Shown here one piece after another: positions 10,023 to 26,232 of a stretch of 45,954 nt of DNA (positions are counted from its first letter, which is position 1; every line of letters begins with the position of its first letter). The stretch is from an uncultured Rikenellaceae bacterium. Lineage in GTDB: Bacteria > Bacteroidota > Bacteroidia > Bacteroidales > Tenuifilaceae. The notes below the pieces were generated by a model. It saw only the letters and a program-made list of their open reading frames with translations, was not told the origin of the DNA and did no database searches. The position numbers and the translations under genes are program-made. The stretch lies in contig CAYZSD010000006.1 of NCBI GenBank assembly GCA_964481075.1, positions 1 through 45,954 on the forward strand, given 5' to 3'.

Positions 10023-10219
10023 AGTTTTTGTAGGGTATGAAAAATTGAAGCAGGCTTATTAAACCCCTATTAAAGCAACTTACCCACCCTTTTAGCACCG
10101 TTAAAAATACGAAATGTTTTTTTGATTTAGCAAACATATATTTATTTTGAATATTTCTAGTTTTTATATAAAAGGTTTACCTTAGCAAGATAATTGATTC
10201 CAAAAAAATTTCCTTCAGT

Positions 10220-12547
10220 ATGAAGAATACTACATTTCTGCTCTTATTCCTTCTTATGGTATATGTGATTGATGGAATAGGGCAAGATGCCGACAGGACA
10301 TCGGGCCTCAAACAATTAGCTGAGAGAATGCTAGATCAATCAAATAATGTTATGCAAGCCAACATTGATTCATCTTTAACGTTGGCCTATCAGGTTGATA
10401 GCCTTGCAACACTCCTGTCAGATTTCGAGTTAATGATGAAAGTGAAACATCATCTTGGATTTATTTACTATAACCAGAATAACTTTGAAAGGGCAATAGA
10501 CTATTTCGAAGAGTCAAGAAAACTTGCCGTTGAGCTCTCGAACCCGCATTTTGAGGCTTTAGCTTTGAACCGTTTAGGTAATTCTTATCAGCTTAGAACT
10601 AACTATCTGTTGGCTTTAGATTACTACCAGCAGGCATTAGCAATTAACGTAAATACAAAAAATCTGGGTGAAGTTGCCCGTACGAAGGTAAATTTGGCAA
10701 ATGTTTACAGCATCATTGGTCAGTACCAACGATCAATACAGCTTTTTCTGGAAGCGATGGAAATCCATGAGTCAATCGATGAACGAGAGGGTTTGGCTTG
10801 GACATCGCTTGGAATAGCACGTCTTTTCAAAAGGCTCGAAATACTCGATAAGGCCATGTATTATGCCGAGTCGGCATTGCACTTCTACAGGGAGATAGAA
10901 CATCGGACAGGGAATAGCACGGGGGTTACCCTTTGCTTGAACGAGATGGGAAGCATTTTTCATAAACTGGGTGATTTCGACAGAGCGCTTGACTACACGC
11001 TTCAGGTGCTTGAGATTAACATCAAAAGGGGCAATGTCCACGGTCAGGCATCGAATCATCTTAGCCTGGGCGTGATTGCTTTCGATAAAAAGGACAACTC
11101 TCTTGCCCTTTTACATCTCAATAGGGCATTAGCCCTAAAGGAGCAGGTTGGAGATAGTCTGGATCTTGCCCGCTTGTATCGTTTCTTGGGAGAGGTCTCG
11201 TTACGAACAAACGATAAAAACATGGCACTAGCTTATACAAAGCAAAGTTTGTTCTTCTCGGAAAAACATCGGCAGCTCCCTGAGATAAGCGAAGGCTACC
11301 ACCTCCTTGCAAGGATATATCAGACAATGAAGCAGTTCGATAAAGCCCTTGATGCTCATGTAAGCTTTACAGCTTATAGGGATAGCTTAAACTCAAGCGA
11401 TATCTCCAGGTTAGAAATGCAATATGAGTTTGAAAAACGAGAGAAGGAGCAAGAGCTTATTGTACGTCAGAGAGAGGCTCTGCAGGAAGCAAGGCTTGAA
11501 AGACAAAGGGTTGTAATAGTATTTTTTGTTGTAGCTTTTCTTCTTGTTGGCAGTTTAGCGGCTTTCATATTCTACGCCTTTAAAGAAAAGCAGAGGATAA
11601 ATAGTATATTGGTGAAGCAGAACGATGAGATTAGTCGCCAAAAACATGAAATTGAGAGTCAGAAGGAGGAAATTGAACAGCAACGTGATTTTGTTACCCG
11701 ACAACGCGATCAAATAGCAGAACAACAAAGGCTTATTACAGATAGCATTACTTATGCAAGCCGAATTCAGAATGCAGTTCTGCCAAGCGACTCAACCTTG
11801 AGGCGATTGCCTTGGGAATCGTTCGTGTTCTACAAACCGAAGAATATTGTGAGTGGCGATTTTTACTGGGTTTCGGAGTTGAGTAATGGAAAAATTATGG
11901 TTGCTGTTGCCGACTGCACAGGGCATGGAGTACCAGGCGCATTCATGAGCATGCTAGGTATTACCCTTTTAAGAGAGATTTCGGGGAAAGCACAGCACCT
12001 TTCACCAGCAGAAATACTTCAGGAGCTTAGAAGGATGGTTATACTCTCCCTAAACCAACAAACAGGTAGAGTTGATCAGGCCGATGGAATGGACATGGCA
12101 ATAACGCTCATCGACAAAAAAAGCCTGATGATGGAGTTTGCGGCCGCCTACCAATCGGTAATTGTGATAAGGGAGGGGGATGTTCATGTTCCCAAAGATC
12201 AAGAGAACCCAAGGGTGATGAAATTAAACGATTATTCATTGGTAGAGCTTAGAGGAAACAAGATGCCCATTGGGTATCATGTATCGGGCGATAAACCTTT
12301 CACAAACCTTGCATTTCAACTTTTACCCAACGATACCCTTTATCTTTTCTCCGATGGGTACATCGATCAGTTTGGAGGGCCAAACAACATTAAGTTCTTG
12401 ATGAACAACTTTAAAAACCTCCTTCTTGGAATTCAGAACAAATCATTGGACCACCAAAAAGAGATAATAAAAAGCACTATCACCGATTTTCAGGGCGAGA
12501 GAAAACAGGTGGACGATATGGTTGTTCTTGGAATAAAACTTACCTAA
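10220..12547 (+). CDS. TPR-repeat sensor / PP2C-family (SpoIIE-type) serine/threonine phosphatase, paralog 1
   Basis: N-terminal hydrophobic signal/anchor, about 380 aa of TPR repeats, a single TM (VVIVFFVVAFLLVGSLAAFIFYAF) and a coiled coil with QRD repeats (EEIEQQRDFVTRQRDQIAEQQ). The C-terminal PPM/SpoIIE domain carries the metal-binding motifs SGDFYW, VADCTGHGVPGAFMS, DGMDMA and FSDGYIDQFGG. Confidence 0.85.
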   Translation: MKNTTFLLLFLLMVYVIDGIGQDADRTSGLKQLAERMLDQSNNVMQANIDSSLTLAYQVDSLATLLSDFELMMKVKHHLGFIYYNQNNFERAIDYFEESRKLAVELSNPHFEALALNRLGNSYQLRTNYLLALDYYQQALAINVNTKNLGEVARTKVNLANVYSIIGQYQRSIQLFLEAMEIHESIDEREGLAWTSLGIARLFKRLEILDKAMYYAESALHFYREIEHRTGNSTGVTLCLNEMGSIFHKLGDFDRALDYTLQVLEINIKRGNVHGQASNHLSLGVIAFDKKDNSLALLHLNRALALKEQVGDSLDLARLYRFLGEVSLRTNDKNMALAYTKQSLFFSEKHRQLPEISEGYHLLARIYQTMKQFDKALDAHVSFTAYRDSLNSSDISRLEMQYEFEKREKEQELIVRQREALQEARLERQRVVIVFFVVAFLLVGSLAAFIFYAFKEKQRINSILVKQNDEISRQKHEIESQKEEIEQQRDFVTRQRDQIAEQQRLITDSITYASRIQNAVLPSDSTLRRLPWESFVFYKPKNIVSGDFYWVSELSNGKIMVAVADCTGHGVPGAFMSMLGITLLREISGKAQHLSPAEILQELRRMVILSLNQQTGRVDQADGMDMAITLIDKKSLMMEFAAAYQSVIVIREGDVHVPKDQENPRVMKLNDYSLVELRGNKMPIGYHVSGDKPFTNLAFQLLPNDTLYLFSDGYIDQFGGPNNIKFLMNNFKNLLLGIQNKSLDHQKEIIKSTITDFQGERKQVDDMVVLGIKLT

Positions 12548-12783
12548 AATTTCTTCGCGGTAATAATAATGCTTTCGGTGTGAACATAACCATTGCCATT
12601 GGCAAAACTTCCCGATGAAATGGGATTTATTGACAATACCGAGTATCCTTCAGAATGAAGCTTATTGCATTGTATTTCAATTTCTTTTGAAAGATCATCT
12701 GAGTCAACCACGCTATACTCCTCGTTTGTTTCTTTATGAGTCCAGTAAGTTGAACGGGTATGGATTACAATGGATTTATACAT
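12544..12783 (-). CDS. Small hypothetical protein (DUF4177-like pattern)
   Basis: 79-aa ORF convergent with paralog 1; the stop codons overlap. The central pattern LHSEGYSVLSINPISSG resembles the (E/K)GWELVSV.P core of DUF4177-type small proteins, a tentative match. Confidence 0.4.
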   Translation of the reverse strand: MYKSIVIHTRSTYWTHKETNEEYSVVDSDDLSKEIEIQCNKLHSEGYSVLSINPISSGSFANGNGYVHTESIIITAKKF

Positions 12784-12982
12784 TGTTTTGCTTGTTAAAT
12801 GTTTGATGAAAAATGATGCATATTTAAGTTCAAAATTATACGCTAAAAATAGAAATTAGTTCATAACAAATAATAAAAATGTTCGCAAGTTTGATGTTTG
12901 ATGATTTAGTAAACTTGCAATAAACTACTTGGTATAGTTTTTTGAGTTATTATCTTTGTCGAAAATATAAAAAAAGAGAATA

Positions 12983-13504
12983 GTGCTTGACCCCAAAAAA
13001 ACACAATGGTTTGCAGTTTATACTAGACCTAGATTCGAAAAAAAAGTGTTTGAGCGATTGGTGGAGGCAGGTATTGAAACCTTTTTGCCTCTTCAAACAC
13101 GTTTAAAACAATGGAGCGATAGGAAGAAACTGGTTGAAGAACCCCTTATTCGTTCCTATATCTTTGTGAAAATTGTATTGAAAGAATACAAAACAGTTAT
13201 TGAAACTGAGGGCATAGTCAGGTTCGTTCGCTTTGAGGGGCAACCAGCTCCGATCCCAGAAAAGCAAATTAATGTGCTTAAGATGCTTCTTGCCCAGCAA
13301 ATTGACATGGAACTGGCCGAGGAGGAGCTCAACCTTGGCGATAAGGTTGAGATAAGAATTGGGTCAATGACTGGTTTTGATGGCATTCTTGTTAACCATA
13401 AAGGGAAGGACAAGGCTATTATTCAAATCGATCATATTACCCACGCTCTTATGGTTACTCTTCCAAAAAACTATATTGCTAAGGCAATAAATGGTGATAG
13501 CTAG
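12983..13504 (+). CDS. UpxY-family transcription antiterminator (NusG paralog)
   Basis: NGN-domain signature WFAVYTRPRFEKKVFERLVEAGIETFLPL, typical of Bacteroidota UpxY/NusG-like proteins, followed by a KOW-like C-terminus. Length 173 aa. Confidence 0.7.
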   Translation: MLDPKKTQWFAVYTRPRFEKKVFERLVEAGIETFLPLQTRLKQWSDRKKLVEEPLIRSYIFVKIVLKEYKTVIETEGIVRFVRFEGQPAPIPEKQINVLKMLLAQQIDMELAEEELNLGDKVEIRIGSMTGFDGILVNHKGKDKAIIQIDHITHALMVTLPKNYIAKAINGDS

Positions 13505-13549
13505 TAGGAAGTTGTGTTTATTGTCAGGCTAGCAAGAAAAAACCGATTT

Positions 13550-13990
13550 CTAGATTGGTTCAATTTTATTAACCCTGTTTGAATGTCTCCCTCCCTCGAA
13601 TTCAGCCTCCAAAAAGGACAGTACGATTTTTTTTGCCAACTCAATATCAACAAAGCGGGCAGGAATTGCACAAATATTAGCATTGTTATGCTGTCTGGCA
13701 AGCGAGGCAATTTCTGGAAGCCAGCATAATGCAGATCTAACCCCTGAGTGTTTGTTGGCGGTAATGTTAACACCATTTCCACTACCACAAATAACAATAC
13801 CTAACTCGTATTCACCATTAGTAATTGCTTGTGCTACCAGATGAGCGTAGTCGGGGTAGTCAACGCTTTCGTCAGAAAAGGGGCCAAAATCCTTTACAAA
13901 GAAACCTTTTGCCATGAGAAGCAAAACAAGTTCCATTTTGGTTCGGTATCCTGCATGGTCGCTGCCTATCGCAATTCGTTTAGATGTCAT
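13550..13990 (-). CDS. rpiB: Ribose-5-phosphate isomerase B
   Basis: IAIGSDHAGY...GIVICGSGNGVNITANKHSGVRSALCW is the canonical RpiB/LacAB motif set. Length 146 aa. Confidence 0.9.
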   Translation of the reverse strand: MTSKRIAIGSDHAGYRTKMELVLLLMAKGFFVKDFGPFSDESVDYPDYAHLVAQAITNGEYELGIVICGSGNGVNITANKHSGVRSALCWLPEIASLARQHNNANICAIPARFVDIELAKKIVLSFLEAEFEGGRHSNRVNKIEPI

Positions 13991-14057
13991 TTTTATGTTA
14001 TTTTTGCAAATATAACAGCATTAAGCACAAATATACAAATTTTATCCTCGACCGAAG

Positions 14058-15185
14058 ATGAGCGGTATATATATCCATGTTCCTTACTGTAAGCGAAAAT
14101 GTGTTTACTGCGATTTCTACTCCGAATCGAGTGAAAATAGGATTCACGAATTCGATAAGCTTATTTCAAAGGAAATATCTCTTCGAAAAGAGTTTCTTTC
14201 GTCTAATAGGATCGAAACAATATACTTTGGTGGCGGTACACCTTCGTTGCTTAAATCACAACAACTTACAAATATTCTTTCAAAGATAAATGATGAGTTT
14301 TCACTTTCTCCTAATCCAGAAATAACCCTTGAGGCAAATCCCGATGACATAACGCGGGACTACTTAAAATCGCTTTTTCAAGCGGGTGTTAACAGACTTA
14401 GTATTGGCGTCCAGTCATTTATCGATGGTGATTTAGAAATGCTTGGACGAAGGCATAATTCCAACCAAGCAGTGATGTCAGTAGAACTTGCCGCTGAGGT
14501 AGGGTTTAGTAATATTAGTATTGATTTAATCTACGGCCTTCCATCGTCCAATTCAAATAAGTGGGAAGCTAATCTTCAAAAGGCTATTTTGTTACCAGTT
14601 AATCATTTGTCGTGTTACCATCTTATCTACGAGGATAATACCCCTTTGTTCAGGGATTATTCAAAGGGAATTGTTAGGGCTATTGATGAAGACGAAAGTG
14701 TTGAGCAGTTCAGAATACTTCAAAGCATTACAGAAAGGACTGGATTTTTGCATTACGAAATCTCCAACTTTGCAAAGGAAGGTTTTTTCTCAAAACATAA
14801 TTCATCGTATTGGAAACAAGTTCCTTACCTAGGACTAGGACCATCCGCACATTCATATAATAGAAAAATCAGGGAGTGGAATCCAAGATCGATTGTCGAA
14901 TGGTCAAAAGCAATCGATGAGGGAATTATTCGCATTGAAAAAGAGGTGCTTAGCGAACGAGACAAGCTGAATGAGTACATACTAACTTCTTTAAGAACCT
15001 CATGGGGTGTTTCAGTTGATGAGCTTGCTGTAAGATTTGGTAAGTCTGTTCTAGATGATTTTCAGATAACAGCAGAAAAGCATGTAAGTGCTGGGAGAAT
15101 GCAATTCGAAGGAAAAGCATATAGGATAAACCCTCAGCATTTTTTTATATCCGATGGAATTATATCCGATTTTTTAAAAGTATAG
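14058..15185 (+). CDS. hemW: Radical SAM family heme chaperone HemW (oxygen-independent coproporphyrinogen-III oxidase-like)
   Basis: Radical-SAM CxxxCxxC cluster in IYIHVPYCKRKCVYCDFYS, plus the GGGTPS motif and HemN C-terminal domain. Length 375 aa. Confidence 0.85.
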   Translation: MSGIYIHVPYCKRKCVYCDFYSESSENRIHEFDKLISKEISLRKEFLSSNRIETIYFGGGTPSLLKSQQLTNILSKINDEFSLSPNPEITLEANPDDITRDYLKSLFQAGVNRLSIGVQSFIDGDLEMLGRRHNSNQAVMSVELAAEVGFSNISIDLIYGLPSSNSNKWEANLQKAILLPVNHLSCYHLIYEDNTPLFRDYSKGIVRAIDEDESVEQFRILQSITERTGFLHYEISNFAKEGFFSKHNSSYWKQVPYLGLGPSAHSYNRKIREWNPRSIVEWSKAIDEGIIRIEKEVLSERDKLNEYILTSLRTSWGVSVDELAVRFGKSVLDDFQITAEKHVSAGRMQFEGKAYRINPQHFFISDGIISDFLKV

Positions 15186-15333
15186 GAACTAATATGTTTT
15201 TTCGAAAAAAAGCATTGGCGTTTCCTGTATTATCTATATATTGCTGGTTTTAATAAGGGCATAGAGAATCAATTGTTAGCCCTTTAATTTCAACTATTTT
15301 TTTAAGATTATAGTTGAGTAGTTTTCGATAGCT

Positions 15334-17556
15334 ATGAGAAAAATTATCTGTAGAAATTACTGGCTGTTCCTCATTTTTGTTTTGTTGCTTCATTGGCCAT
15401 CAGTCACATATTCAGACGATGAGAGGAAAATGCAGACCAACCTTGACAGTATAATTCTTGTCAAACCAATTGATGAGCTTTTACCCTGGTTAATTGAAGA
15501 AAGCCGAACAATTCTATACACCAATCCTGAGATTTCTCTTGAATACGCATCTAAAGCCCTTGAGATAGCGCAAGAGAAAAAAAATTCTAATGAGGCAATA
15601 GAGGCTGCAATTGCGGTTGCAAATGCATACATCAATTTAGGGTATTTTTCGCAAGCACATAATCACATACTAAATTCCATTGAACTGGCAAAAAGTATTA
15701 GCGATAAGTATTTATTGGCTACTGCCTGGCGGGTTTACGGTTTTTGGTTCGACATGCAAGGCGATATTAAGAGTGCCATTGAGCATTACCATAAGGCTCT
15801 TGCGCTATACGAAGAACTTGACCATAACGTTGGCAAAGCCGCCTGCTACAATAATATCGGAATAATGCTGTACGAGTTGGGCGACTACGAAGGTGCAATC
15901 AACTTCTATAACAAGTCAAAAGATTTATACTCAGGATCTAACAACCAACGAAATCTATCAAAATCATATTGTAATCTGGGAAATGTTTACGAGAAAATTG
16001 GGGATTACGATACTGCATTAAAATATCTACATGAGGCTTTAAGCATCGACGAAGAACTTGATGACAAACAAGGTAAAGCTGCAACGCTTCACAATATTGG
16101 TTTGGTTTATTATAGCAAGAAAGAATATGCGAAAGCCTTAGCAAATATTCGAAAATCGCTTGTACTATGTCAAGAACTCAATGATAACTATCGAATTATT
16201 ACTCGGTATATCACTTTGAGCGAGATTTATAATACAATTGAGAAGTTTAACGAAGGGCTTTATTATGCCCAAAAGGCACTAGAACTTTCTAGGGAGTTTG
16301 GCACAACAGGACAACAACCCGACATTTACAAAGAGCTTATAAATTCTTATAGCGGATTAAAAAACTATAAAGAGGCCTTTGATGCTCAAAAGTTATACTA
16401 TGCCATTAAAGACAGCCTGCTCGATATTCAAAAAACAAAGGAAATAGTTAAAATTCAAACTAGCTATGAAGTGAAACAGAGCCAACAAGAGCTTGAAAAG
16501 ACTAAATCCCTGGCGGCCAAAGATCGAAAAGTAAGGAATGCTTCTGTTGTGGCTTTCATCTTGGCAATAATTCTTACCCTTCTTATATATCATGCCTATA
16601 GAAATAAGATTAGAACTAACAGGTTGATTTTTGAGAAGAACGTTGAGCTGGAACAGGCGAATGCTGAAATTCTCGCCCAGCACGATGAGCTAGAAAACCA
16701 AAGGGATAGGTTGGTTAACCAAAACGATAAGCTCGAAGAGGTTAATAACCATATTACCCAAAGTTTGATTTACGCTCAGAGTATTCAAGCTGCAATTCTT
16801 CCTTCGGAAAAAATATTGGCTCAAATTAGTTCCCAGTATTTTGTGGTGATGAAACCGTGTGAAGTGGTTAGTGGGGATTTTTTCTGGGCTACATGCTTTG
16901 ATGAATACCAAGTTTTTTGTGTAGCCGATTGTACTGGTCATGGTGTACCCGGTGCGTTTATGAGTGTTTTGGGTATAACCCAACTCAACGATATTGTAGC
17001 AAGACACAGGATTACCAACCCAACCGATATCCTAAACTACCTTAGGCAGGGTGTAATTGAGGCACTTAGCCAAAACAACCCAGACCAACTTCATAAAGAT
17101 GGGATGGATATTGCTCTCTGTGTGTATAATAGTAAAACCCGAGAGTTAGGCTTCTCGGGGGCAGGGCTACCCCTTTGGTTGGTTACCAAAACACCAGAGT
17201 TGTTAGGCACACCAAAATCTGTTGAACCTTTCTCTCAGGATGGTAATTATTTGCTTGAAATAAAGGGTGATATAATGCCCGTAGGTTTTTCTCCTCGCAT
17301 GAAACCTTTTGCAAATCATAAAGTTATCCTTAATGCTAGTAGTGTGTCAGTTTATCTTTCAACCGATGGCTTTGCCGATCAGATTGGTGGGAGTGAGAGG
17401 ACAAAATTTGGAAACACCAGGCTAAAAAAACTAATCCTCGATAGTGTTAACTCAAATTTTTCAGCTCAAAAGAGTATGTTAGAGACAACATATAATGATT
17501 GGAAGGGTAGTAACTTTCAGGTAGATGATGTGTCTATCTTAGGTATAAGACTTTAA
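15334..17556 (+). CDS. TPR-repeat sensor / PP2C (SpoIIE-type) phosphatase, paralog 2
   Basis: Signal/anchor, TPR array, TM (VVAFILAIILTLLIY), coiled coil (AEILAQHDELENQRDRLVNQNDKLEE) and a PP2C domain (YAQSIQAAILPSEK, VSGDFFWAT, QVFCVADCTGHGVPGAFMSVLGIT, DGMDIALC, STDGFADQ, DDVSILGIRL). Confidence 0.85.
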   Translation: MRKIICRNYWLFLIFVLLLHWPSVTYSDDERKMQTNLDSIILVKPIDELLPWLIEESRTILYTNPEISLEYASKALEIAQEKKNSNEAIEAAIAVANAYINLGYFSQAHNHILNSIELAKSISDKYLLATAWRVYGFWFDMQGDIKSAIEHYHKALALYEELDHNVGKAACYNNIGIMLYELGDYEGAINFYNKSKDLYSGSNNQRNLSKSYCNLGNVYEKIGDYDTALKYLHEALSIDEELDDKQGKAATLHNIGLVYYSKKEYAKALANIRKSLVLCQELNDNYRIITRYITLSEIYNTIEKFNEGLYYAQKALELSREFGTTGQQPDIYKELINSYSGLKNYKEAFDAQKLYYAIKDSLLDIQKTKEIVKIQTSYEVKQSQQELEKTKSLAAKDRKVRNASVVAFILAIILTLLIYHAYRNKIRTNRLIFEKNVELEQANAEILAQHDELENQRDRLVNQNDKLEEVNNHITQSLIYAQSIQAAILPSEKILAQISSQYFVVMKPCEVVSGDFFWATCFDEYQVFCVADCTGHGVPGAFMSVLGITQLNDIVARHRITNPTDILNYLRQGVIEALSQNNPDQLHKDGMDIALCVYNSKTRELGFSGAGLPLWLVTKTPELLGTPKSVEPFSQDGNYLLEIKGDIMPVGFSPRMKPFANHKVILNASSVSVYLSTDGFADQIGGSERTKFGNTRLKKLILDSVNSNFSAQKSMLETTYNDWKGSNFQVDDVSILGIRL

Positions 17557-17576
17557 GTGTTTAAAACGATAATGCA

Positions 17577-19661
17577 ATGCAACCGGTAAAACGAGGTATT
17601 TTTTTTCTAATTTTTTTTTTGTGGCTGTTCGCATCTTCAAAGCTTTCGCTCGGAAATAGTGGTGATACAATTAGGTGCAATCAGTATCTTGAGATGGCTA
17701 GGAATAGTTTGAATAATCCTGAAGTTGCCACATTATATATCGACTCGTGCATTGCAATTGCAAAAGGATCAGGGAATAATATTTTCTTGGCTCGAGCATA
17801 CCTGTTGTTGGGAAATATACTTATCAGAAATGATGAGTACCCAACGGCACTAAAACACCTGCTTGAAGGTCTTAATTTGGCTGTAAATCAAAACGATGTA
17901 TTACTTACAAGTAAATTGTATAATAGCATAGGCTTAGCATACTACTTTCAAAACCCAGAGTATTTCTCACAAGCAATTGAATACCACAAGAAAGCGATTG
18001 AGATTCAGAGTAGGTTGAACGATTCTATTAGTTTGGATAGAAGCTATGTGTTTCTTGGAAACATTTACGGTGATCCAATTTCTTCTACAACTTACAACCC
18101 CGATGAAGCATTAAACTATTACTTAAAGGCACTTGCCATTCAAGAAAAGCTTGGTGATAAGGATAGGCTTGGTAGGATTCTAGGACATATAGGGTTTATT
18201 TACATATCTCAAGGTAAACTCGATGAAGCCCATGAAATTCTAACCCGATCACTTAGTATATTCGAAGAACTTGCTGATAGGAAGGGCTTAATGGTTACTT
18301 ACTACCGTCTAGGAGCCCTTAAGCGTCAGTTGGGAAGATATCAGGAATCGGCTGACTTTCTAGTCCGTGTTATTGAAATGGCCAACGAATTCAACGATAA
18401 GGATCTTGCAAATAACGCACACGAATCGCTTTCGAATACATACACTAGAATGGGAAATTATAAGAAGGCCTTACACCATTACAGACAATCGGTTGAGATT
18501 AAATTTGAACTACATAGTATTGAACGCCTGAATAGTATAACCGAATTTGAGAAAAAGTATGAAACTGCTCAGAAAGAAAAGGAGATTGAAATTCTAAAAC
18601 GGGAGTCTGAGCTAACTGAAATTCGCATGAAGAAGCAACAGACAGTAACGTTCTCTATCATAGGTGGTTCTTTGTTGTTAATTCTTGTAATAGTCCTACT
18701 ATACAGATCCAATGCCTTGAAAAACAGGGCAAATACTATTCTGCTACAGAAGAACGCTGAGATATCGTTACAAAAAGAGGAAATTGAAGCCCAACGAGAT
18801 GAAATTGAGGGCCAACGTGATTTGGTTGTTAAACAACGCGATGCTATTGAAAAGGTTAATAATCAGACTATTGAAAGCCTTCGTTACGCTCAAAGTATTC
18901 AGGCGGCATTGCTTCCTTCTGAAAAAGTTCTTCAGCAAATAAGCCGAGATTATTTCGTGCTAATGAAGCCTTGCGAACTGGTGAGCGGCGATTTCTTTTG
19001 GGCAACAACTTTCGATGAGTTTCAAGTTTTTTGCGTAACCGACTGCACTGGACATGGAGTACCCGGGGCTTTTATGAGTATTCTGGGAATAACTTCATTA
19101 AATGATATAGTAGCAAAACACCGTATAACCCGACCTTCCGAAATACTTGGGCATCTTAGGCAGAGCGTTGTTGAAGCGTTGAGTCAGAATGACTCCAGTG
19201 AGACACATAAGGATGGAATGGACATAGCCCTTTGTGTCTTCAACATAAAAACCCGAGAATTGCAGTTTGCAGGCGCAGGCATCCCTTTGTGGTTAGTTTT
19301 CGAAAAAAATACTATTAATGTAGAAGAATACTACGAGAAGATTGATAGAGAAGATTTTGTGTTTTGTGAGGTGAAAGGCGACATCATGCCTGTTGGTCGT
19401 TCGCCAAGAATGAAACCTTTTAGCAATCATACCTTTGCGCTGAAAAATAGTAGCCTATCCCTTTATATAGCTACCGATGGTTTTGCCGATCAGGTTGGCC
19501 AGGGCGGTAAGTATGGTAACCAGCGTTTGAAGTCGTTTATTCTTAGAAATACAACGAAATCTTTTGATTATCAAAAAAATCTCCTTTCTGAAGAGTTTGA
19601 GAATTGGATGGAAGAAAAATATCAGATTGATGATTACACAATTTTGGGAATTAAAATTTAA
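17577..19661 (+). CDS. TPR-repeat sensor / PP2C (SpoIIE-type) phosphatase, paralog 3
   Basis: Same architecture. The PP2C block is nearly identical to paralog 2 (YAQSIQAALLPSEKVL, VSGDFFWATTFDEFQVFCVTDCTGHGVPGAFMSILGIT) and the coiled coil reads EEIEAQRDEIEGQRDLVVKQRD. It starts 20 nt after paralog 2. Confidence 0.85.
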   Translation: MQPVKRGIFFLIFFLWLFASSKLSLGNSGDTIRCNQYLEMARNSLNNPEVATLYIDSCIAIAKGSGNNIFLARAYLLLGNILIRNDEYPTALKHLLEGLNLAVNQNDVLLTSKLYNSIGLAYYFQNPEYFSQAIEYHKKAIEIQSRLNDSISLDRSYVFLGNIYGDPISSTTYNPDEALNYYLKALAIQEKLGDKDRLGRILGHIGFIYISQGKLDEAHEILTRSLSIFEELADRKGLMVTYYRLGALKRQLGRYQESADFLVRVIEMANEFNDKDLANNAHESLSNTYTRMGNYKKALHHYRQSVEIKFELHSIERLNSITEFEKKYETAQKEKEIEILKRESELTEIRMKKQQTVTFSIIGGSLLLILVIVLLYRSNALKNRANTILLQKNAEISLQKEEIEAQRDEIEGQRDLVVKQRDAIEKVNNQTIESLRYAQSIQAALLPSEKVLQQISRDYFVLMKPCELVSGDFFWATTFDEFQVFCVTDCTGHGVPGAFMSILGITSLNDIVAKHRITRPSEILGHLRQSVVEALSQNDSSETHKDGMDIALCVFNIKTRELQFAGAGIPLWLVFEKNTINVEEYYEKIDREDFVFCEVKGDIMPVGRSPRMKPFSNHTFALKNSSLSLYIATDGFADQVGQGGKYGNQRLKSFILRNTTKSFDYQKNLLSEEFENWMEEKYQIDDYTILGIKI

Positions 19662-19730
19662 ATTGCTTTCTTTATAGTGTGCAAAATACTGATTAGTAAA
19701 CAAGAAGATAACCGTCAAACCTTCTGAATT

Positions 19731-21956
19731 GTGCAATCGAAGCTATCAATTTTTGATTTTAGGTGCAAACCAATTGCAAAAAAACGGATTGGCTTTTTGT
19801 TGCTTACTTTCATTTTTGTAACCATCCTCATTAATAATGCACTATCACAGTTAAACCCTTATGTTGATAGCCTAAACCATGTCTTAAAACAAGCTAACCA
19901 CGATACAATCCGAATCAAGACACTGCTCGATCTGGGTGATTTTTATGAAGTTACTCTTCCAGAAAAGGCAATAGAATACTTCGAACAAGCCTTAACTATT
20001 GCCGAACAAAATGCTGATAACGGGAGACGGTTTAAGGAACTAGCTGTTGTTTGTACAAGATATATTGGTACAGTGCATTACAATCAAAGTGCTTTCGATA
20101 AGGCTATGGGTTACTTTCTTCGTTCGCTCAGTTTGAGCGAGGAGCTAAGCATGAAATCGGCCATCTCAGCTGCACTAAACAACATTGGAAGAATTCACGA
20201 GTCTTTAAGAAATTTTGACCAGGCCATAAGCTATTTCAACCAATCCATCAAGGTCTCTCAGGAGATAAACGAGGATCTTGGTGTGGCACGTGGTTACAAT
20301 AATCTTGGAGCAACCTACTCACAATCAGGTGAAATACACCTCTCGATAACGTACTTTGAAAAGGCTGCCAAGCTATTTGATAAGCTAGGGCTTAAACGTT
20401 ATATGGCTACAACCTATAATAACATTGGAATATATTACTTAGGGCTCATTCATTCAAAAGAGGACTCCGATTCAACAGAAAGCTATTACTTTAGAGCTGC
20501 TAGTTTTTTTGAAAAAGCCGCCCCTGTTTACAGGGAAATGGAAGAACTTTACGATCTTTCTCTATGCCTTGCGAACATGGCACAGGTTTACGACCAGATA
20601 AATACCCTTTTGCACGATATGCATCCGAAAAAGGAATGGTACAGAAAGTCTGCCATTGAAACAGGTACGGAAGCTATTGATGTGGCACGTAGGATAAAAA
20701 ACTTTAGGGCTATCTACTATTCAGCACATGCCTTAAGAGAGCTGAATAAAAGACACAAGGATTACAAGGAAGCATTACGCTACGCTGAAATCATTATCGA
20801 TAACAATGATAGCATATTCAAACAAGAGAAACTCCGAAATACGGCTGAACTTGAGGCTAGATATAAAACCCAGAAAAAGGAGCAGGAGCTTGAGAACCAA
20901 ATGTTGGTTGCCAGTCGCCAACGCCTACTTCGAAACACTTTGGTAGTTGGGTTGGTACTAACTATTCTGCTAGCAGCATCGCTTTATCGGGGATACCTTA
21001 CCAACCGAAAGGCCAACGATTTAATTAGCAAGCAGAATCATACCCTCGAACAGGCAAATGCCGAAATTATGGCTCAAAGGGATGAGGTACAAAAGCAAAG
21101 GGATATGCTTATTAGCCAAAATGAGATTTTAGAGCAAGCCAAATCGCATATAACCAACAGCTTATTGTATGCCCAAAGTATTCAGGCAGCAATTCTTCCT
21201 TCGGAAAAGGTTCTAGAGAGCATAAGTTCAGACTATTTTGTTCTGGTAAAGCCCTGTGAACTAGTGAGTGGCGACTTTTTCTGGGCTACTCACTTCAATC
21301 ATTATCAAGTTTTTTGTGTGGCCGATTGTACTGGTCATGGTGTGCCTGGGGCATTTATGAGTATTTTGGGTATTACAGCACTAAATGAGATTATTGGGAA
21401 GCATAAGGTTGTAAAACCTAGTGAGGTACTAAACCAGCTTCGAGCCAGCGTTGTTGAAGCCCTAAGCCAGAATGCACCAATGAATCGTCATAAAGATGGC
21501 ATTGATATTGCTCTTTGTCTCTTTGATACAAATACAAGAGAGTTGCAATTTGCTGGGGCAGGGCTTCACCTTTGGATAGTATTCAAAAAGCAAGAAATGT
21601 GTAATGAGGAGAACAACCGAACGAGAGTAATAGAAAAGAACGGTTATTCACTTTGCGAAGTAAAAGGTGATACCATCCCCGTTGGCTACTCACATCGTTG
21701 TGAACCCTTCAAAAATAATGTTATCCAACTAAATAGCACTTCGGTTAGTATTTACCTTGCCACCGATGGATATGCTGATCAGTTTGGAGGTGAAAATTAC
21801 TATAAATATACCTCCAGAAAGTTACGTTCTCTAATACTAGAAAACTGTCATCTTCCGATGGAACTGCAAAAAAATATTTTACTAGATGAGCATAATCGCT
21901 GGAAGGCCAATTACGACCAAATTGATGATATAACAATCTTAGGGATAAAGGTATAG
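19731..21956 (+). CDS. TPR-repeat sensor / PP2C (SpoIIE-type) phosphatase, paralog 4
   Basis: Same architecture. TM is LVVGLVLTILLAASLY, coiled coil AEIMAQRDEVQKQRDMLISQNE, and the PP2C motifs are conserved (VSGDFFWATHFNHYQVFCVADCTGHGVPGAFMSILGIT). Confidence 0.85.
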   Translation: MQSKLSIFDFRCKPIAKKRIGFLLLTFIFVTILINNALSQLNPYVDSLNHVLKQANHDTIRIKTLLDLGDFYEVTLPEKAIEYFEQALTIAEQNADNGRRFKELAVVCTRYIGTVHYNQSAFDKAMGYFLRSLSLSEELSMKSAISAALNNIGRIHESLRNFDQAISYFNQSIKVSQEINEDLGVARGYNNLGATYSQSGEIHLSITYFEKAAKLFDKLGLKRYMATTYNNIGIYYLGLIHSKEDSDSTESYYFRAASFFEKAAPVYREMEELYDLSLCLANMAQVYDQINTLLHDMHPKKEWYRKSAIETGTEAIDVARRIKNFRAIYYSAHALRELNKRHKDYKEALRYAEIIIDNNDSIFKQEKLRNTAELEARYKTQKKEQELENQMLVASRQRLLRNTLVVGLVLTILLAASLYRGYLTNRKANDLISKQNHTLEQANAEIMAQRDEVQKQRDMLISQNEILEQAKSHITNSLLYAQSIQAAILPSEKVLESISSDYFVLVKPCELVSGDFFWATHFNHYQVFCVADCTGHGVPGAFMSILGITALNEIIGKHKVVKPSEVLNQLRASVVEALSQNAPMNRHKDGIDIALCLFDTNTRELQFAGAGLHLWIVFKKQEMCNEENNRTRVIEKNGYSLCEVKGDTIPVGYSHRCEPFKNNVIQLNSTSVSIYLATDGYADQFGGENYYKYTSRKLRSLILENCHLPMELQKNILLDEHNRWKANYDQIDDITILGIKV

Positions 21957-22020
21957 GTGTTTCTATACAATAAATTATTGATAATACTTTTATTAGTAAC
22001 CTAATCAAAACCTGATTATT

Positions 22021-23376
22021 ATGTCAATTCATCGATTATTTGTATTCTTTTCCCTAATTATTAATCTCTTAGGTTACTCATTTGCAGCTTCTACTGATAG
22101 CCTTTACCATCTTCTTGAGAAGACTAAGGACTATGAATCTAAGATTAAACTACATAAGCAGTTGGCTCAGGAGTTTTGGACAGCGAATCACGATTCTTGC
22201 AACTATCACCTTGATAAAGCTCAATATTATGCTTTGAAGGAGAAACTGACAGAAGAGGCGAAGGCAATTTCCTTTATTAGAGGGATTTTTTTAATTGAAA
22301 CAGGTCAGTTTGATAAGGCACTTGAAGTATTTCATTGGTTACTCGACCAAACAACCGACGAAACAGATCCTTCGGTAATGGCAAGAATTCTCGGGAATAT
22401 TGGGAACTGTTATAACCATAAAAATTACGTTTCAAAAGCAATAGAATACTACGAAAGAGCCATCACCTATTTTGAGGAACTCGATAGCAAGCAAGGCTTG
22501 GCAACTGCCTACAGCATGATAGCCAATCTTTTTTACCAAAACTCAAACTATCGGGAAGCTATTCAATATTTTTTTAAAGGCATTGATTATTTTAAGCAAG
22601 CTGAAAACGGTCAAGGTATTGCAATCAATACCATGAATATTGGTGTTTGCTACAAAGAGTTGAACTACCCCGATTCTTCAATTATTTACTATAAAAACGC
22701 TCTTTCAAGATTCGAAGAGATTGGCAATATGCCCTTTTATCAGGCACAGTGCTTAGCCAACATTGGTAATTACTACTACTACTTTGCTGAAAAAAAGAGT
22801 TTATTGGAGGCTGAAAAGTATTTACTGAAAGCAGAGGCAATTTTTAATCAAATGCATAATCCACTTTCAATAATTCAGATAAACCATGATATTGCTAGTC
22901 TTCAGCTTGAAGCAGGAAAGTTTGATGGAGTTCTGAAAAGAATTGATTTTAGCTTAGATCTGTCAAGGAGAAATCGATTCGACAATCTTATCCTTCATAG
23001 CTATCACATGAAATGGAAATATTATGATAAGATAAATGACTGTAATAATGCACATAAATGGCTTCGGGAATACATTAAACTAAAGGATTCAATTGACCTT
23101 TCAGAGAGGAAGCAAAATATCGACTTTATTCTTGCTCAGTTCGATACAGAGCGAAAAGAAAAGGAAATTGAATTACTCAAGCAATCTGAAATAATCAATC
23201 GCTTAGAATTAAAACGGAAAACCCAAGCCCAGTATATCACCCTAATCGGGTTACTGGGTGCGCTTGCGTTTGTTGCTTTTCTTTATATAAACAGCAGTAA
23301 GCGTAAGCGGATTAACCAATTGCTTTCAACACAAAACCAGGAGATTAACCAGCAAAAAGAGGAAATTATTGCATAG
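22021..23376 (+). CDS. N-terminal (TPR + TM + start of coiled coil) portion of TPR-PP2C paralog 5, terminated by an in-frame TAG
   Basis: Signal/anchor, TPR repeats and TM (ITLIGLLGALAFVAFLYI). The ORF ends ...QKEEIIA followed by TAG at 23374..23376, at the position where paralogs have Gln in the QRD helix. It is in the same reading frame as the following ORF. Likely an interrupted gene or pseudogene. Confidence 0.6.
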   Translation: MSIHRLFVFFSLIINLLGYSFAASTDSLYHLLEKTKDYESKIKLHKQLAQEFWTANHDSCNYHLDKAQYYALKEKLTEEAKAISFIRGIFLIETGQFDKALEVFHWLLDQTTDETDPSVMARILGNIGNCYNHKNYVSKAIEYYERAITYFEELDSKQGLATAYSMIANLFYQNSNYREAIQYFFKGIDYFKQAENGQGIAINTMNIGVCYKELNYPDSSIIYYKNALSRFEEIGNMPFYQAQCLANIGNYYYYFAEKKSLLEAEKYLLKAEAIFNQMHNPLSIIQINHDIASLQLEAGKFDGVLKRIDFSLDLSRRNRFDNLILHSYHMKWKYYDKINDCNNAHKWLREYIKLKDSIDLSERKQNIDFILAQFDTERKEKEIELLKQSEIINRLELKRKTQAQYITLIGLLGALAFVAFLYINSSKRKRINQLLSTQNQEINQQKEEIIA

Positions 23377-23406
23377 CGTGATGAGATTGAAAGGCATAGA
23401 GATGTT

Positions 23407-24255
23407 GTGCAGGAGCAGAACGTAAAGCTTGAGAAATTTCGTCAACACACCACCGAAAGTCTTCGCTATGCACAAAGCATTCAGGCCGCAATTTTACCCT
23501 CTGAGAAAGTAATTCATAGCATCAGCGAAGAGCATTTTGTGTTAATGAAACCATGCGAATTTGTGAGTGGAGATTTCTTTTGGGCTACAACGTTCAACGA
23601 GTTTCAAATTTTTTGTGTAGCCGATTGTACCGGGCATGGGGTGCCTGGTGCATTCATGAGCATTCTTGGAATCACTGCTCTTAACGATATTGTTATAAAA
23701 CACAGGATATCCAAACCATCCGATATCCTCGGTTACCTTCGTCAGAGTGTAATAGAAACCCTAAGCCAGAACGATGCCGAACAGCTACATAAGGATGGAA
23801 TGGATATTGCGCTTTGCACTTTCAATAGTAAAACCCGTGAGTTACAATTTGCAGGCGCAGGAATACCGATGTGGGTTGTAACAAATAATCCAGAGTGCAA
23901 ATTGCTTTTCGAGGCGAAAAGTGAGAAAGTAGAATATCAGAATTTGAATCTTTTCGAAGTAAAGGGTGATCCCATGCCAGTAGGGCTTTCGCCACGAATA
24001 AAGCCTTTCACTAATAGTGTTTATGCGCTGAATAATAATTCAGTAGCAATCTATCTCCTTACGGATGGCTATACTGATCAATTTGATGAAACAAGGCAAG
24101 CCAAGTACGGAAACCAAAAGCTTAAAAAGCAAATTATTGAAATAAACCACTTAGCTTTTACCGAGCAAAAAGTGCATCTTGAAAAAGAATTTGATGTTTG
24201 GAAGGGTTCTGGCTATCAACTTGATGATGTTGCAATACTAGGAATAAAAATTTAG
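23407..24255 (+). CDS. C-terminal PP2C/SpoIIE phosphatase-domain portion of TPR-PP2C paralog 5 (same frame as 22021..23376)
   Basis: Complete PP2C domain very similar to paralogs 2-4 (YAQSIQAAILPSEKV, VSGDFFWATTFNEFQIFCVADCTGHGVPGAFMSILGIT, DGMDIALC, LTDGYTDQF, DDVAILGIKI). The frame is continuous with the upstream ORF across a single TAG. Its own start would be a GTG at 23407. Confidence 0.6.
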   Translation: MQEQNVKLEKFRQHTTESLRYAQSIQAAILPSEKVIHSISEEHFVLMKPCEFVSGDFFWATTFNEFQIFCVADCTGHGVPGAFMSILGITALNDIVIKHRISKPSDILGYLRQSVIETLSQNDAEQLHKDGMDIALCTFNSKTRELQFAGAGIPMWVVTNNPECKLLFEAKSEKVEYQNLNLFEVKGDPMPVGLSPRIKPFTNSVYALNNNSVAIYLLTDGYTDQFDETRQAKYGNQKLKKQIIEINHLAFTEQKVHLEKEFDVWKGSGYQLDDVAILGIKI

Positions 24256-24303
24256 AACCATTGCAAAATAAAACTTACATTTGATGACTAATTAAATATT
24301 TTT

Positions 24304-26232
24304 TTGGAAGGTATGATGAAGAGGGGTTGGGTTTTAATTAGCTTTGCAGCTATATTACAGTCATTTTGCCTATGTTTTTGCTGTTTTATTTCGTCCTTTG
24401 CCCAAGACACCGTTGGTTCATTAAAGAATTCAATTAATCCATGTGACTCGGCCTATGTGGTTGAACTTAAGCTGCTATGCTGGGAGAATAGAAATAAAGA
24501 TGTTGCTGTAGCATTACATTTCGGGAATTTGGCTCTTGGATTGGCTCAGAAATGTAAAATGCCCTACGAAGAAGCCGATATCCTTACCCGAATAGGTATT
24601 GTTAAGCGAAACCAAAGCAGATTTTCTGAGGCTCTTGAGTATTACATCAAGGCTCTCGAAATCTCAAAGAAACATGGTTTTTTAAAGCTTCAAGGGTATT
24701 GCTATAATAACATTGCCGATATATACAATAGGTTGGGTTTATACGATAAAGCCCTAGAGTATGCGAAGGTTGGACTTGAAACTCTCTGTCAGGTAGATGA
24801 GAAGAATGCCCTCGGTTACGTTTTCAACATAAAGGGTTTGATATACAAAAACATGGGCATACTCGACTCTGCTTACTCAGTGTTCTCAAAATCCTTAGCT
24901 ATACGAAAAGAGATAAACTTCCAAGAGGGAGTTGCAACATCCTTTTTGAATATTGGAAGCATTTATTTTCTTAAGGAAGAATACGACAGTAGTATTTACT
25001 ACTACCAAAAAGCGGTTGAAATTTACAGTTTGAAAAATGATCAATTTGGTTTGGCCAACGCATTTAGGCATTTAGGCTCATACTTCTTAATACAAAAAGA
25101 TTATCTTGGAGCAATCAACTATTTTGAACAATCCCTCGAATTCAATAAAGGTTTCGGTAACATAGAACTTCAGATGGAAGCCGCCGAAGGACTAAGAGAC
25201 TCTTACTATGCCCTTGGTCGGATAAGTAAAGCATACAACTTCCAGAAGCTTACCTCAAAACTAAAGGATAGTATTAATACAACCATTTTTATTGAACGTA
25301 TAACCCATCTTACCGAAAACTTTAAATATGAACTTAGAAGAAAGGAGGAGGAACAAATACAAAAGGAGAATGAGACTTTGCTTTCAAACAGGATACGTAA
25401 CCAGCAGATTCTTATAAGATTCTACATTTCAATCATTTTTCTGGTTATAATGCTTGCTGTTATCGGAGTCTACCTATATTATTTAAAAAATAGAAGTTAT
25501 CTGCTTCTTAACAGGCAAAAGCGAGAAATCGAAGAGTTGAACTCAACAAAAGATAAACTATTTTCACTCATTGGGCACGACCTTAAGAACCCTATCCATT
25601 CAATTATGGGGATATCGGAATTGCTTCGTGATCATTTCGAGACCTTTGACAAGAAACAAATGCTAGAATTAGTTTCATCAGTTTACGATGCTGGTAGAGC
25701 TACTCATGAAATTCTTGAGAACCTTCTTTCTTGGGCAAGAGCTCAAACCGATAAAATTCAGCTAAACATTGAAGAATTGTCTATAGATAAGCTGATAGAT
25801 CATGTTGTTTCAGGTGTCAGACCTGGCGCGAATAGAAAAGAGATACAGATATTCTGGCATTTAGATGCTGATTTTGTTGTTGAAGCTGATGCAAACATTG
25901 TGTCAACTACTCTAAGAAATCTTCTTTCTAATGCTGTAAAATACTCGAGAAGAAACAGTCAGATTGTAATTTCTGTTACCGACAGGAACAGCTTTTTAGA
26001 AATATCTGTTAAAGATGAGGGGGTTGGAATGTCTCCAGAAGTGAAAGAAAAATTATTCTCATCAATTAACATCAATCCAGGTTATGGCACCGAGAACGAA
26101 AAAGGTACAGGCTTGGGTTTGAGTATTTCAAAAGGGTTCATTACCAAGTTGGGAGGTGATATTTGGTTTGAAAGTGAACAAGACGTTGGAAGTACCTTCC
26201 ATTTCTCAATACCAAAAAGATTTACTAAATGA
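24304..26232 (+). CDS. TPR-repeat sensor histidine kinase (signal peptide/anchor - TPR - TM - HisKA - HATPase_c)
   Basis: N-terminal hydrophobic segment, TPR repeats and TM (FYISIIFLVIMLAVIGVYLYY). H-box LFSLIGHDLKNPIHSI, N-box LRNLLSNAVKYS, G-boxes VKDEGVGM and GTGLGLSISKG. No receiver domain and no adjacent response regulator. Confidence 0.85.
   Translation: MEGMMKRGWVLISFAAILQSFCLCFCCFISSFAQDTVGSLKNSINPCDSAYVVELKLLCWENRNKDVAVALHFGNLALGLAQKCKMPYEEADILTRIGIVKRNQSRFSEALEYYIKALEISKKHGFLKLQGYCYNNIADIYNRLGLYDKALEYAKVGLETLCQVDEKNALGYVFNIKGLIYKNMGILDSAYSVFSKSLAIRKEINFQEGVATSFLNIGSIYFLKEEYDSSIYYYQKAVEIYSLKNDQFGLANAFRHLGSYFLIQKDYLGAINYFEQSLEFNKGFGNIELQMEAAEGLRDSYYALGRISKAYNFQKLTSKLKDSINTTIFIERITHLTENFKYELRRKEEEQIQKENETLLSNRIRNQQILIRFYISIIFLVIMLAVIGVYLYYLKNRSYLLLNRQKREIEELNSTKDKLFSLIGHDLKNPIHSIMGISELLRDHFETFDKKQMLELVSSVYDAGRATHEILENLLSWARAQTDKIQLNIEELSIDKLIDHVVSGVRPGANRKEIQIFWHLDADFVVEADANIVSTTLRNLLSNAVKYSRRNSQIVISVTDRNSFLEISVKDEGVGMSPEVKEKLFSSININPGYGTENEKGTGLGLSISKGFITKLGGDIWFESEQDVGSTFHFSIPKRFTK

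Follow-up and report, generated by a model that had tools for sequence, protein, structure and literature searches.

The window, which is the whole 45,954-bp contig (CAYZSD010000006.1) of a metagenome-assembled genome (MAG), carries six same-strand genes for predicted membrane receptors built on one tetratricopeptide repeat (TPR) sensor scaffold: five encode sensor phosphatases of the PP2C type (P1 to P5) and the sixth a histidine kinase. The listing of open reading frames (ORFs) places these genes where the initial annotation had put them, one of them (22021..24255) appearing as two ORFs, and Pfam confirms that UpxY-like NusG, rpiB and hemW genes break up the string. The rest of the window consists of housekeeping and transport genes. 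The features of the array are listed below (TM, transmembrane; aa, amino acids; nt, nucleotides).

10220..12547, + strand: P1, divergent TPR-TM-PP2C sensor phosphatase of 775 aa (Pfam TPR_12, E 7e-35; SpoIIE, E 5e-19)
11513-11569, + strand: TM segment of P1, aa 432-450 (hydropathy)
11885-12538, + strand: SpoIIE domain of P1, aa 556-773 (Pfam)
15334..17556, + strand: P2, TPR-TM-PP2C protein of 740 aa, the conserved copy right after hemW
16540-16596, + strand: TM segment of P2, aa 403-421 (hydropathy)
16909-17550, + strand: SpoIIE domain of P2, aa 526-739 (Pfam)
17577..19661, + strand: P3, TPR-TM-PP2C protein of 694 aa (Pfam, NCBIfam, hydropathy, AlphaFold2)
17658-18452, + strand: TPR solenoid of P3, aa 28-292 (AlphaFold2 model)
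18645-18701, + strand: TM part of the stalk and TM helix of P3 (whole helix, aa 295-374; AlphaFold2 model)
18717-18911, + strand: linker helix of P3, aa 381-445 (AlphaFold2 model)
18921-19655, + strand: PPM domain of P3, aa 449-693 (AlphaFold2 model)
19731..21956, + strand: P4, TPR-TM-PP2C protein of 741 aa from GTG at 19731 (the ENA gene call begins 22 codons later)
20925-20981, + strand: TM segment of P4, aa 399-417 (hydropathy)
21309-21953, + strand: SpoIIE domain of P4, aa 527-741 (Pfam)
22021..24255, + strand: P5, TPR-TM-PP2C frame broken by one in-frame stop
22021-23376, + strand: N-terminal fragment of P5, 451 aa, TPR and TM (TM at nt 23233-23289)
23374..23376, + strand: in-frame TAG of P5 (codon 452)
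23407-24255, + strand: C-terminal ORF of P5, 282 aa, with SpoIIE at nt 23611-24249
24304..26232, + strand: FimS-like TPR sensor histidine kinase, 642 aa from TTG (639 aa in the version of the sequence collection)
25408-25464, + strand: TM segment of the kinase, aa 369-387 (hydropathy)
25549-25746, + strand: HisKA domain of the kinase, aa 416-481 (Pfam)
25888-26217, + strand: HATPase_c domain of the kinase, aa 529-638 (Pfam)

Strong Pfam TPR matches were obtained for all six proteins. In agreement with the domains assigned initially, the C-termini of P1-P5, the C-terminal ORF of P5 included, match SpoIIE (PF07228) with 43-69 bits against a gathering cutoff of 25, and the sixth protein matches HisKA (E 1e-8) and HATPase_c (E 7e-23). 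All six begin with a positively charged stretch and a hydrophobic segment, and a single strong TM segment follows internally, at approximately residues 357-450. The architecture common to the six thus comprises an N-terminal hydrophobic segment, a TPR solenoid, one TM helix, a long linker helix and an output module, which is PP2C five times and HisKA/HATPase once. All six translations show a stalk motif next to the membrane, YExxKKExE. In P1-P5, the linker that connects the TM helix with the YAQSIQ motif is 58-62 residues long in every case and contains the conserved motif EIxAQRDEIExQRD. The metal-binding motifs of the PPM domain (SGDF, DCTGHG, DGxD, DGxxDQ and QxDD) are invariant in an alignment of 9 and in one of 65 sequences, so the catalytic motifs of the phosphatases are intact, as had been read from the translations, and are shared with their relatives.

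The AlphaFold2 model of P3, computed from an alignment of 65 homologs, has a mean predicted local distance difference test (pLDDT) score of 88. It comprises an N-terminal helix, a TPR solenoid of 14 helices, an uninterrupted stalk and TM helix, a linker helix of 65 residues and an alpha/beta PPM domain with the predicted alpha-beta-beta-alpha fold, where pLDDT exceeds 90 over most of residues 449-693. By fold comparison, the TPR half of the model resembles the peptide-binding superhelices of LGN/Pins.

From hydropathy, charge, this model and the precedent of FimS, the sensor kinase of the FimS-FimR system of Porphyromonas gingivalis, we infer that the TPR domain is extracytoplasmic and the PP2C domain cytoplasmic. 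Because ATP for the kinase core is cytoplasmic and a single internal TM segment stands before this core, the N-terminal TPR domain should lie outside the cytoplasm. The initial proposal of a single sensor scaffold whose outputs can be exchanged and whose TPR domain is extracytoplasmic is supported by Pfam, hydropathy and AlphaFold2, with the topology as a prediction. Like the proteins of the window, FimS has a TPR sensor between two hydrophobic segments followed by cytoplasmic signalling domains, its periplasmic domain of ~338 residues containing eight TPR motifs between TM1 and TM2 (PMC11053733). Periplasmic TPR sensing is thus documented and, with thousands of homologs of the same architecture, not the unusual trait it was first taken for. 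FimS differs from P1-P5 in that its output is a kinase instead of a PP2C phosphatase. With no ligand known for it (PMC11053733), FimS offers no clue to the signal received by the proteins studied here.

The kinase of the window has the FimS type of architecture, with TPR between two hydrophobic segments (residues 11-29 and 369-387), then HisKA with an H-box (GHDLKNP in the translation) and HATPase_c. The NCBIfam FimS model NF053520 aligns to it over positions 140-617 with 223.6 bits, below the cutoff of 600, and the kinase is not a FimS equivalog. The same model also aligns to the sensor and TM parts of P1-P5 (e.g., residues 87-385 of P3, E 7e-34).

Likeness to SiaA and the SiaB/SiaC pair in relatives

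The phosphatase domains of P1-P5 point to SiaA of Pseudomonas aeruginosa (PA0172). Its PP2C domain (6K4E) is the sole sequence match of P3 in the PDB (E 5e-24) and the best solved fold match to the P3 model, with a template modelling (TM) score of 0.89, a root-mean-square deviation of 2.5 Å and 27% identity, while RssB (~0.7), RsbX (0.70) and SpoIIE (0.5-0.6) score lower. The NCBIfam SiaA model NF038263 is the top match for all five phosphatases (E 1e-40 to 1e-48); in P1, its positions 379-657 are aligned with 163 bits. The equivalents of the SiaA active-site residues D457, D474, G477, D600, G601 and D653 (residue list from PMC7647112, aligned to 6K4E) are conserved in the phosphatases of the window.

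In P. aeruginosa, the DUF1987 protein SiaC is phosphorylated by the kinase SiaB and dephosphorylated, at Thr68, by SiaA; in its unphosphorylated form it activates the cyclase SiaD (PMC7647112, PMC7278518, PMC8457831). SiaC has a STAS-like fold (PMC7647112, PMC8457831), and its DUF1987 family has been noted as widespread (PMC8457831). SiaA and P1-P5 share the design of a sensor phosphatase anchored in the membrane, its PPM domain on the cytoplasmic side. The published scheme of SiaA shows two membrane segments and a HAMP domain (PMC7647112), whereas P1-P5 have a conserved helix of ~60 residues in place of HAMP, and their sensor is a large, predicted periplasmic TPR solenoid rather than the N-terminal region of SiaA itself. 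Moreover, there are several paralogs in the window instead of one, and their genes are not in an operon with siaB and siaC. P1-P5 are therefore not SiaA equivalogs, being below the score cutoff, without HAMP and outside a sia operon here; judging from sequence and model, they would work most like SiaA equipped with a FimS-type sensor.

No STAS, SiaC, SiaB, anti-sigma or receiver domain was detected by Pfam in window ORFs of at least 100 aa, and a six-frame search of the window with the SiaC hidden Markov model found nothing (best E 0.68). The initial annotation had stated that the 46 kb hold no partner gene (STAS, anti-sigma or receiver), which these scans corroborate, and had left the substrate and partner logic unexplained; on the latter point, relatives of the array now provide SiaB/SiaC as a concrete candidate.

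The neighbourhoods of family genes were examined in 80 reference loci related to the window genes. A Pfam scan of 150 ORFs of 90-240 aa within ~3 kb of these genes (58 more distant small ORFs were left out) revealed SiaC (PF09345) as the commonest family, with 8 of the 150 ORFs and a best E of 2e-41. Receiver domains were found in 3 and ECF sigma domains in 3-4 of the ORFs; no STAS, HATPase_c_2 or Pkinase family was among the 25 commonest families listed. The SiaC gene is 0-190 bp from the phosphatase gene in seven loci (L013, L016, L028, L015, L043, L054 and L084). The phosphatases of L013, L016, L028 and L084 are genuine TPR-SpoIIE proteins by Pfam, and that of L015 is a DUF4154-PAS-SpoIIE protein. 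In L013, L028 and L015, the gene after SiaC encodes a tandem-double SiaB-family kinase of ~380 aa (250-270 bits against a cutoff of 85), and in L016 an ORF of equal size (381 aa) takes this position. The siaC gene and the ~380-aa gene close a TPR-PP2C array of five copies in L013 and of at least six in L016 (SiaB was scanned in the former), and these are the nearest analogue of the window array.

Two of these loci encode fusions. An uncultured Bacteroides MAG (L043) encodes a 949-aa TPR-SpoIIE-DUF6272(SiaB) protein (9887-12736) with a SiaC gene directly after it (12736-13134), which is a natural fusion of the phosphatase and the kinase of one switch. In L054, a TPR-SpoIIE-receiver protein (8901-11150) is followed by a SiaC gene (11156-11539), which suggests crosstalk of two-component signalling with the SiaC switch in some Bacteroidota. 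In a neighbour-joining tree of PP2C domains, which has long branches and is not robust, the phosphatases next to SiaC are dispersed, and this scatter argues for a family-wide relationship.

Bacteroidota SiaC matches solved SiaC with E 2e-24 and keeps Ser/Thr at the T68 position (YFN[S/T][S/A]S; site from PMC7278518). A flavodoxin / siaB / siaC locus is conserved in Bacteroidales (L087-L092; e.g., L087 8832-10420), where SiaB is a tandem double DUF6272 protein, in total ~380 aa as opposed to ~180 aa in Pseudomonas, and SiaC, 70-91% identical across many assemblies, has an acidic C-terminal tail. This siaB(x2)-siaC operon is tightly conserved and has no phosphatase gene beside it in L087-L089; phosphatases encoded far from siaBC are therefore normal. 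A PAS-type phosphatase is found beside siaBC in L090 and L091, the former having also a TPR-type one 8 kb away. Unlike in the SiaABCD system of P. aeruginosa, no SiaD diguanylate cyclase was seen near siaBC in Bacteroidota.

A locus of Microscillaceae (L084, 3-6507) contains four SiaC paralogs around one TPR-PP2C gene, beside BatA/BatB-like VWA and TPR genes. Here there are many switch proteins per phosphatase, the opposite of the ratio in the window.

Age, integrity and spread of the array

P2-P5 are pairwise 55-61% identical in their C-terminal halves and 22-27% in their TPR halves. Between P1 and these four, identities are 36-39% for the C-terminal halves, 22-27% for the TPR halves and 29-32% overall. 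The PP2C domains of P2-P5 are thus far from 'nearly identical', as the initial annotation had called them, although its picture of diverged inputs and a conserved output holds. The recent duplication proposed along with it does not. DNA-level repeats are 62-80% identical, no two copies share an exact stretch of more than 23 nt, and the proportion of synonymous differences (pS) is 0.71-0.91 across both halves, that is, synonymous sites are saturated; on these grounds, recent duplication and gene conversion were rejected. At this saturation the ratio of nonsynonymous to synonymous rates (dN/dS), proposed for comparing TPR and PP2C regions, is inestimable. In the phosphatase halves, the proportion of nonsynonymous differences (pN) is 0.24-0.30 versus a pS of 0.71-0.84.

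Orthology leads to the same conclusion. A related array on a JGI contig (L001) contains orthologs of P2 (L001_a, 54% identical over the full length), P3 (L001_c, 53%) and P5 (L001_b, 52%, an intact protein of 745 aa); a single-copy ortholog of P2 (51%) occurs in L002, and P4 has no ortholog in L001 (38-43% to its copies). For P2, P3 and P5, full-length identities are 51-54% between orthologs versus 38-42% between paralogs. In the TPR half, orthologs are 45-51% and paralogs 22-27% identical, and in the C-terminal half the values are 58-64% and 55-61%; each paralog therefore has its own conserved sensor on a common output. Since one-to-one orthologs exist, the duplications, as judged from sequence comparison, predate the split of the window and L001 genomes and are ancient. 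The gene order within the array differs between the two.

The array is anchored by three genes:

12983-13504, + strand: UpxY/NusG-like gene (Pfam)
13550-13990, - strand: rpiB (Pfam)
14058-15185, + strand: hemW-like radical SAM gene (Pfam)

The order UpxY-like NusG / rpiB / hemW / TPR-PP2C is conserved with a variable copy number of the last gene: one in L002-L004 (Tenuifilaceae MAG), three in L001 and four in the window. All genes from P2 to the kinase are on the same strand with gaps of 20-69 bp, and these short gaps, on which the operon structure solely rests, suggest co-transcription. A scan of the window for sigma-70 promoters and terminators gave counts at chance level.

The frame of P5 is interrupted within the conserved linker motif (EEI-I-A-[TAG]-RDEIE), at a position that is Gln in the paralogs and in at least 90% of 65 homologs (Q406 in P3 numbering). 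Of the five intact phosphatases described initially, P1-P4 are confirmed, while P5 is split by TAG 23374-23376 into ORFs of 451 and 282 aa. The same TAG is present in ENA contig L005, which is 100% identical to the window over 3690 nt. The sister ENA contig, L006, differs from the window at 8 positions; the window and the ENA contigs are therefore separate assemblies of one population, and a sequencing artefact is unlikely. Recoding or suppression of TAG was rejected, given that it ends 13 of 32 genes in the window, where no tRNA genes were found. The C-terminal half of P5 is 64% identical to that of L001_b, the top value among all ortholog pairs, and because this phosphatase half is the best conserved, the lesion looks recent. 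Speculatively, the stop would leave an output-less sensor, to which a restart at GTG 23407 would add a free phosphatase with a truncated linker. The ENA assembly (~4.5x coverage) also breaks between P3 and P4 (window 19696-19716; end of L006), and L005 ends at window position 23405, 29 nt past the TAG; a CAG/TAG polymorphism, or low coverage, could explain the latter.

The kinase was initially regarded as the end of the array. Its ortholog (54%), from the same JGI sample as L001, is located on a separate contig (L093) away from any array, and no TPR kinase was found beside a TPR phosphatase in the 80 related loci. For these two reasons, the kinase was rejected as an integral member of the array, and its adjacency is specific to this lineage. 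The TPR half of the kinase is 23-27% identical to those of the paralogs, with no one paralog closer. No Response_reg domain, and so no FimR-like regulator, was found in the window, nor beside the kinase ortholog in L093. Relatives of the kinase are named 'tetratricopeptide repeat-containing sensor histidine kinase', a routinely annotated class.

The family as a whole is very large. With P3 as a query, 4382 of 8000 scored candidates pass E 0.001, and nearly all of the best 120 of these 4382 carry TPR and SpoIIE. Where named, they belong to Bacteroidales, Tenuifilaceae and Williamwhitmania, and they are annotated just as 'tetratricopeptide repeat protein' or, by JGI, '(serine phosphatase) RsbU'. 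A scan of one genome per species gave at least 599 matches spanning Bacteroidales, Flavobacteriales, Cytophagales and Chitinophagales. At least two copies within 10 kb are present in 23 of the 80 reference loci. Tandem arrays of five in a row (L013 and L014) and of at least six (L016) occur in other MAGs, which disagrees with the lineage-specific network suggested before. A literature search found no paper on this TPR-TM-PP2C architecture or on SiaBC in Bacteroidota; 'SiaC' in Bacteroidetes papers refers to an unrelated sialidase, and the single BT3442 paper concerns a MACPF protein.

Proposed signalling and alternative explanations

We consider it probable that the multiple sensor phosphatases of the window converge on a SiaB/SiaC partner switch encoded elsewhere, and that the kinase is a separate FimS-like orphan. 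The six proteins would be inner-membrane receptors on one input module, consisting of a signal peptide or anchor, a periplasmic TPR solenoid of ~270-330 residues and a stalk helix that runs straight into the single TM helix and then into a cytoplasmic signalling helix. In P1-P5, the linker of constant length would lead to a SiaA-type phosphatase with intact metal ligands. A ligand bound in the TPR groove would act through the stalk, TM and linker helices of a dimer on the regulatory helices of PP2C; a coiled-coil linker mechanism has been shown for RsbU and proposed as a toolkit common to kinases and cyclases (PMC12143880). The activated phosphatase would dephosphorylate a SiaC-type (DUF1987, STAS-like) phosphoprotein, which a constitutive SiaB-family kinase, also encoded elsewhere, would keep phosphorylated. 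We infer that transduction is dimeric, that SiaC is the substrate of the window's own proteins and that all active paralogs act on one such protein, with the siaB-siaC pair in another part of this genome; many inputs to one switch would be the most likely logic. Unphosphorylated SiaC would then bind an effector, apparently not a SiaD diguanylate cyclase in Bacteroidota. P5 would be currently out of this set, split by its putatively recent nonsense mutation, and the kinase would use the same input module outside the phosphatase pathway.

Several observations weigh against this proposal. The scores of P1-P5 with the SiaA model, 138-163 bits, are far from the equivalog cutoff of 700, and just the C-terminal ~280 residues align (model positions ~380-657). 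HAMP was absent from P1-P5 in Pfam searches at E up to 0.01, unlike in SiaA. The topology is a prediction, for which the bias of charges near the internal TM helix is by itself not decisive. SiaC adjacency occurs in just 7 of 80 loci, representing ~6 independent lineages, and the L015 phosphatase is of the PAS type and not of the TPR type. There is no siaB or siaC in the window or in the five closest-clade loci (L001, L002, L007, L008 and the ENA contigs). Furthermore, no GGDEF or SiaD-like cyclase was seen near any Bacteroidota siaBC examined, which leaves the downstream step without precedent.

An unlikely alternative is that P1-P5 are classical input phosphatases of the RsbU/SpoIIE type, acting on a canonical STAS anti-anti-sigma protein (RsbV/SpoIIAA-like) and an RsbW-type kinase, with a sigma factor or another STAS output elsewhere. 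RsbU and RsbP of Bacillus subtilis and SpoIIE resemble P1-P5 in having a SpoIIE-family PPM domain and an N-terminal module that acts through a helical, probably dimeric, linker; RsbU and RsbP converge on RsbV, i.e., several input phosphatases serve one switch protein, as proposed for P1-P5. Input modules of such phosphatases are common to histidine kinases (PMC12143880, PMC3183031). In favour of this reading, the domain falls in the SpoIIE family of Pfam, relatives carry the JGI name 'serine phosphatase RsbU', 3-4 of 150 neighbouring small ORFs have ECF-type sigma domains, and SiaC itself is STAS-like (PMC7647112, PMC8457831), so that the two models differ just in the STAS-like protein used. 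However, RsbU and RsbP are soluble proteins that are switched on by partner proteins, while P1-P5 are predicted transmembrane receptors with a periplasmic sensor. RsbX, SpoIIE and RssB are clearly poorer fold matches to the P3 model than SiaA, and none was found by sequence; the window has no STAS gene, no STAS or RsbW genes were found nearby, and it is SiaC that heads the 25 commonest neighbour families listed, with STAS and HATPase_c_2 not among them. In addition, the use of sigmaB/sigmaF-type sigma factors is not known from Bacteroidota. The phosphatases could also be general ones, reversing Hanks-type kinase phosphorylation of several cytoplasmic targets without a dedicated switch, as the missing partner gene in the window and the 73 of 80 related loci without SiaC nearby would allow. 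This is quite unlikely: their fold and sequence place them in the SpoIIE/SiaA branch of PPM phosphatases, in which the members studied have STAS-like switch proteins as substrates (PMC7647112, PMC12143880), the SiaB-domain fusion of L043 argues for a dedicated module, and Pkinase is not among the commonest neighbouring families.

A mixed circuit of the phosphatases and the adjacent kinase is very unlikely, whether the PP2C proteins reversed, for example, a Ser/Thr phosphorylation in the two-component pathway of the kinase or all six assembled into hetero-oligomeric receptors via their similar stalk and TM helices. The strand and short gaps from P2 to the kinase, the YExxKKExE motif and input module common to all six, and the TPR-SpoIIE-receiver fusion in L054 would fit such a circuit, but the kinase ortholog is on a different contig, far from any array and with no response regulator gene beside it, TPR kinases and TPR phosphatases are never neighbours in the 80 loci, and the TPR half of the kinase is equally distant from all paralogs. 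A redundant, decaying array, with several copies turning into pseudogenes and little present function, appears highly improbable. It would account for the P5 nonsense codon in two assemblies and for the lack of a P4 ortholog in the one related array compared; yet the 11 kb contain a single lesion, every copy, including the two halves of P5, retains its catalytic and linker motifs, P2, P3 and P5 have conserved orthologs with paralog-specific sensors, and pN is well under pS in the phosphatase halves.

Extending the SiaB/SiaC proposal beyond the window, we put forward, with less assurance than the convergence itself, the possibility that Bacteroidota run a threonine-phosphorylation switch of this type without a diguanylate cyclase, fed by batteries of periplasmic TPR receptor phosphatases and acting on a new class of effector. 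Up to six receptors in tandem (five here) would have different conserved ligand specificities, and the window array would be one input bank of a phylum-wide, experimentally undescribed hub for envelope or environment sensing. Bacteroidota are dominant in guts, sediments and digesters, and their signalling has, to our knowledge, been studied almost wholly via hybrid two-component systems and pairs of ECF sigma and anti-sigma factors. The SiaB/SiaC switch has so far been studied in Pseudomonas, as a controller of biofilms. The window locus belongs to a generically annotated family which its relatives tie to SiaB/SiaC. If the link is true, thousands of orphan phosphatases would gain a testable substrate, the six proteins would be a naturally occurring example of a sensor module connected to a kinase in one protein and to a phosphatase in others, and the question would arise of what SiaC controls where no SiaD is found nearby. 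The window array itself is old, ordinary, widespread in kind and partly broken, and the result is mostly clarifying; the family-level link with its unknown output is the more interesting point.

Other genes of the window

One further sensor gene flanks P1:

7254..10022, - strand: membrane sensor of 922 aa with dCache-HAMP-GAF-PAS-PAS domains (Pfam) and no recognisable output domain

It is divergent from P1 with a gap of 197 bp, and the pair is also found in a Bacteroidales MAG (L029: 7234-9576 on the - strand and 9815-12139 on the + strand, gap 238 bp), where the sensor is 57% and P1 47% identical. The sensor may be a co-sensor for P1, and its pairing with P1 hints at a further co-sensor layer. 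In L008, a homolog of this sensor and a TPR-PP2C gene are 4 kb apart.

Between P1 and the UpxY-like gene, an ORF of 79 aa (12544-12783, - strand) overlaps the stop codon of P1 by 4 nt; it has no Pfam match and is a gene call in the ENA assembly (L006 4968-5207). Scans of the window gave zero Rfam RNA families and zero tRNA genes. Elsewhere in the window, the gene at 34812-37904 (- strand) encodes a protein of 1030 aa with a TMEM260-like protein O-mannosyltransferase domain (E 2e-73); two ORFs without Pfam match, 33843-34778 and 38001-38540, come after it. An unusual fusion of an MFS transporter with a spermidine-synthase-like methyltransferase domain (897 aa) is encoded at 39704-42397 (- strand).

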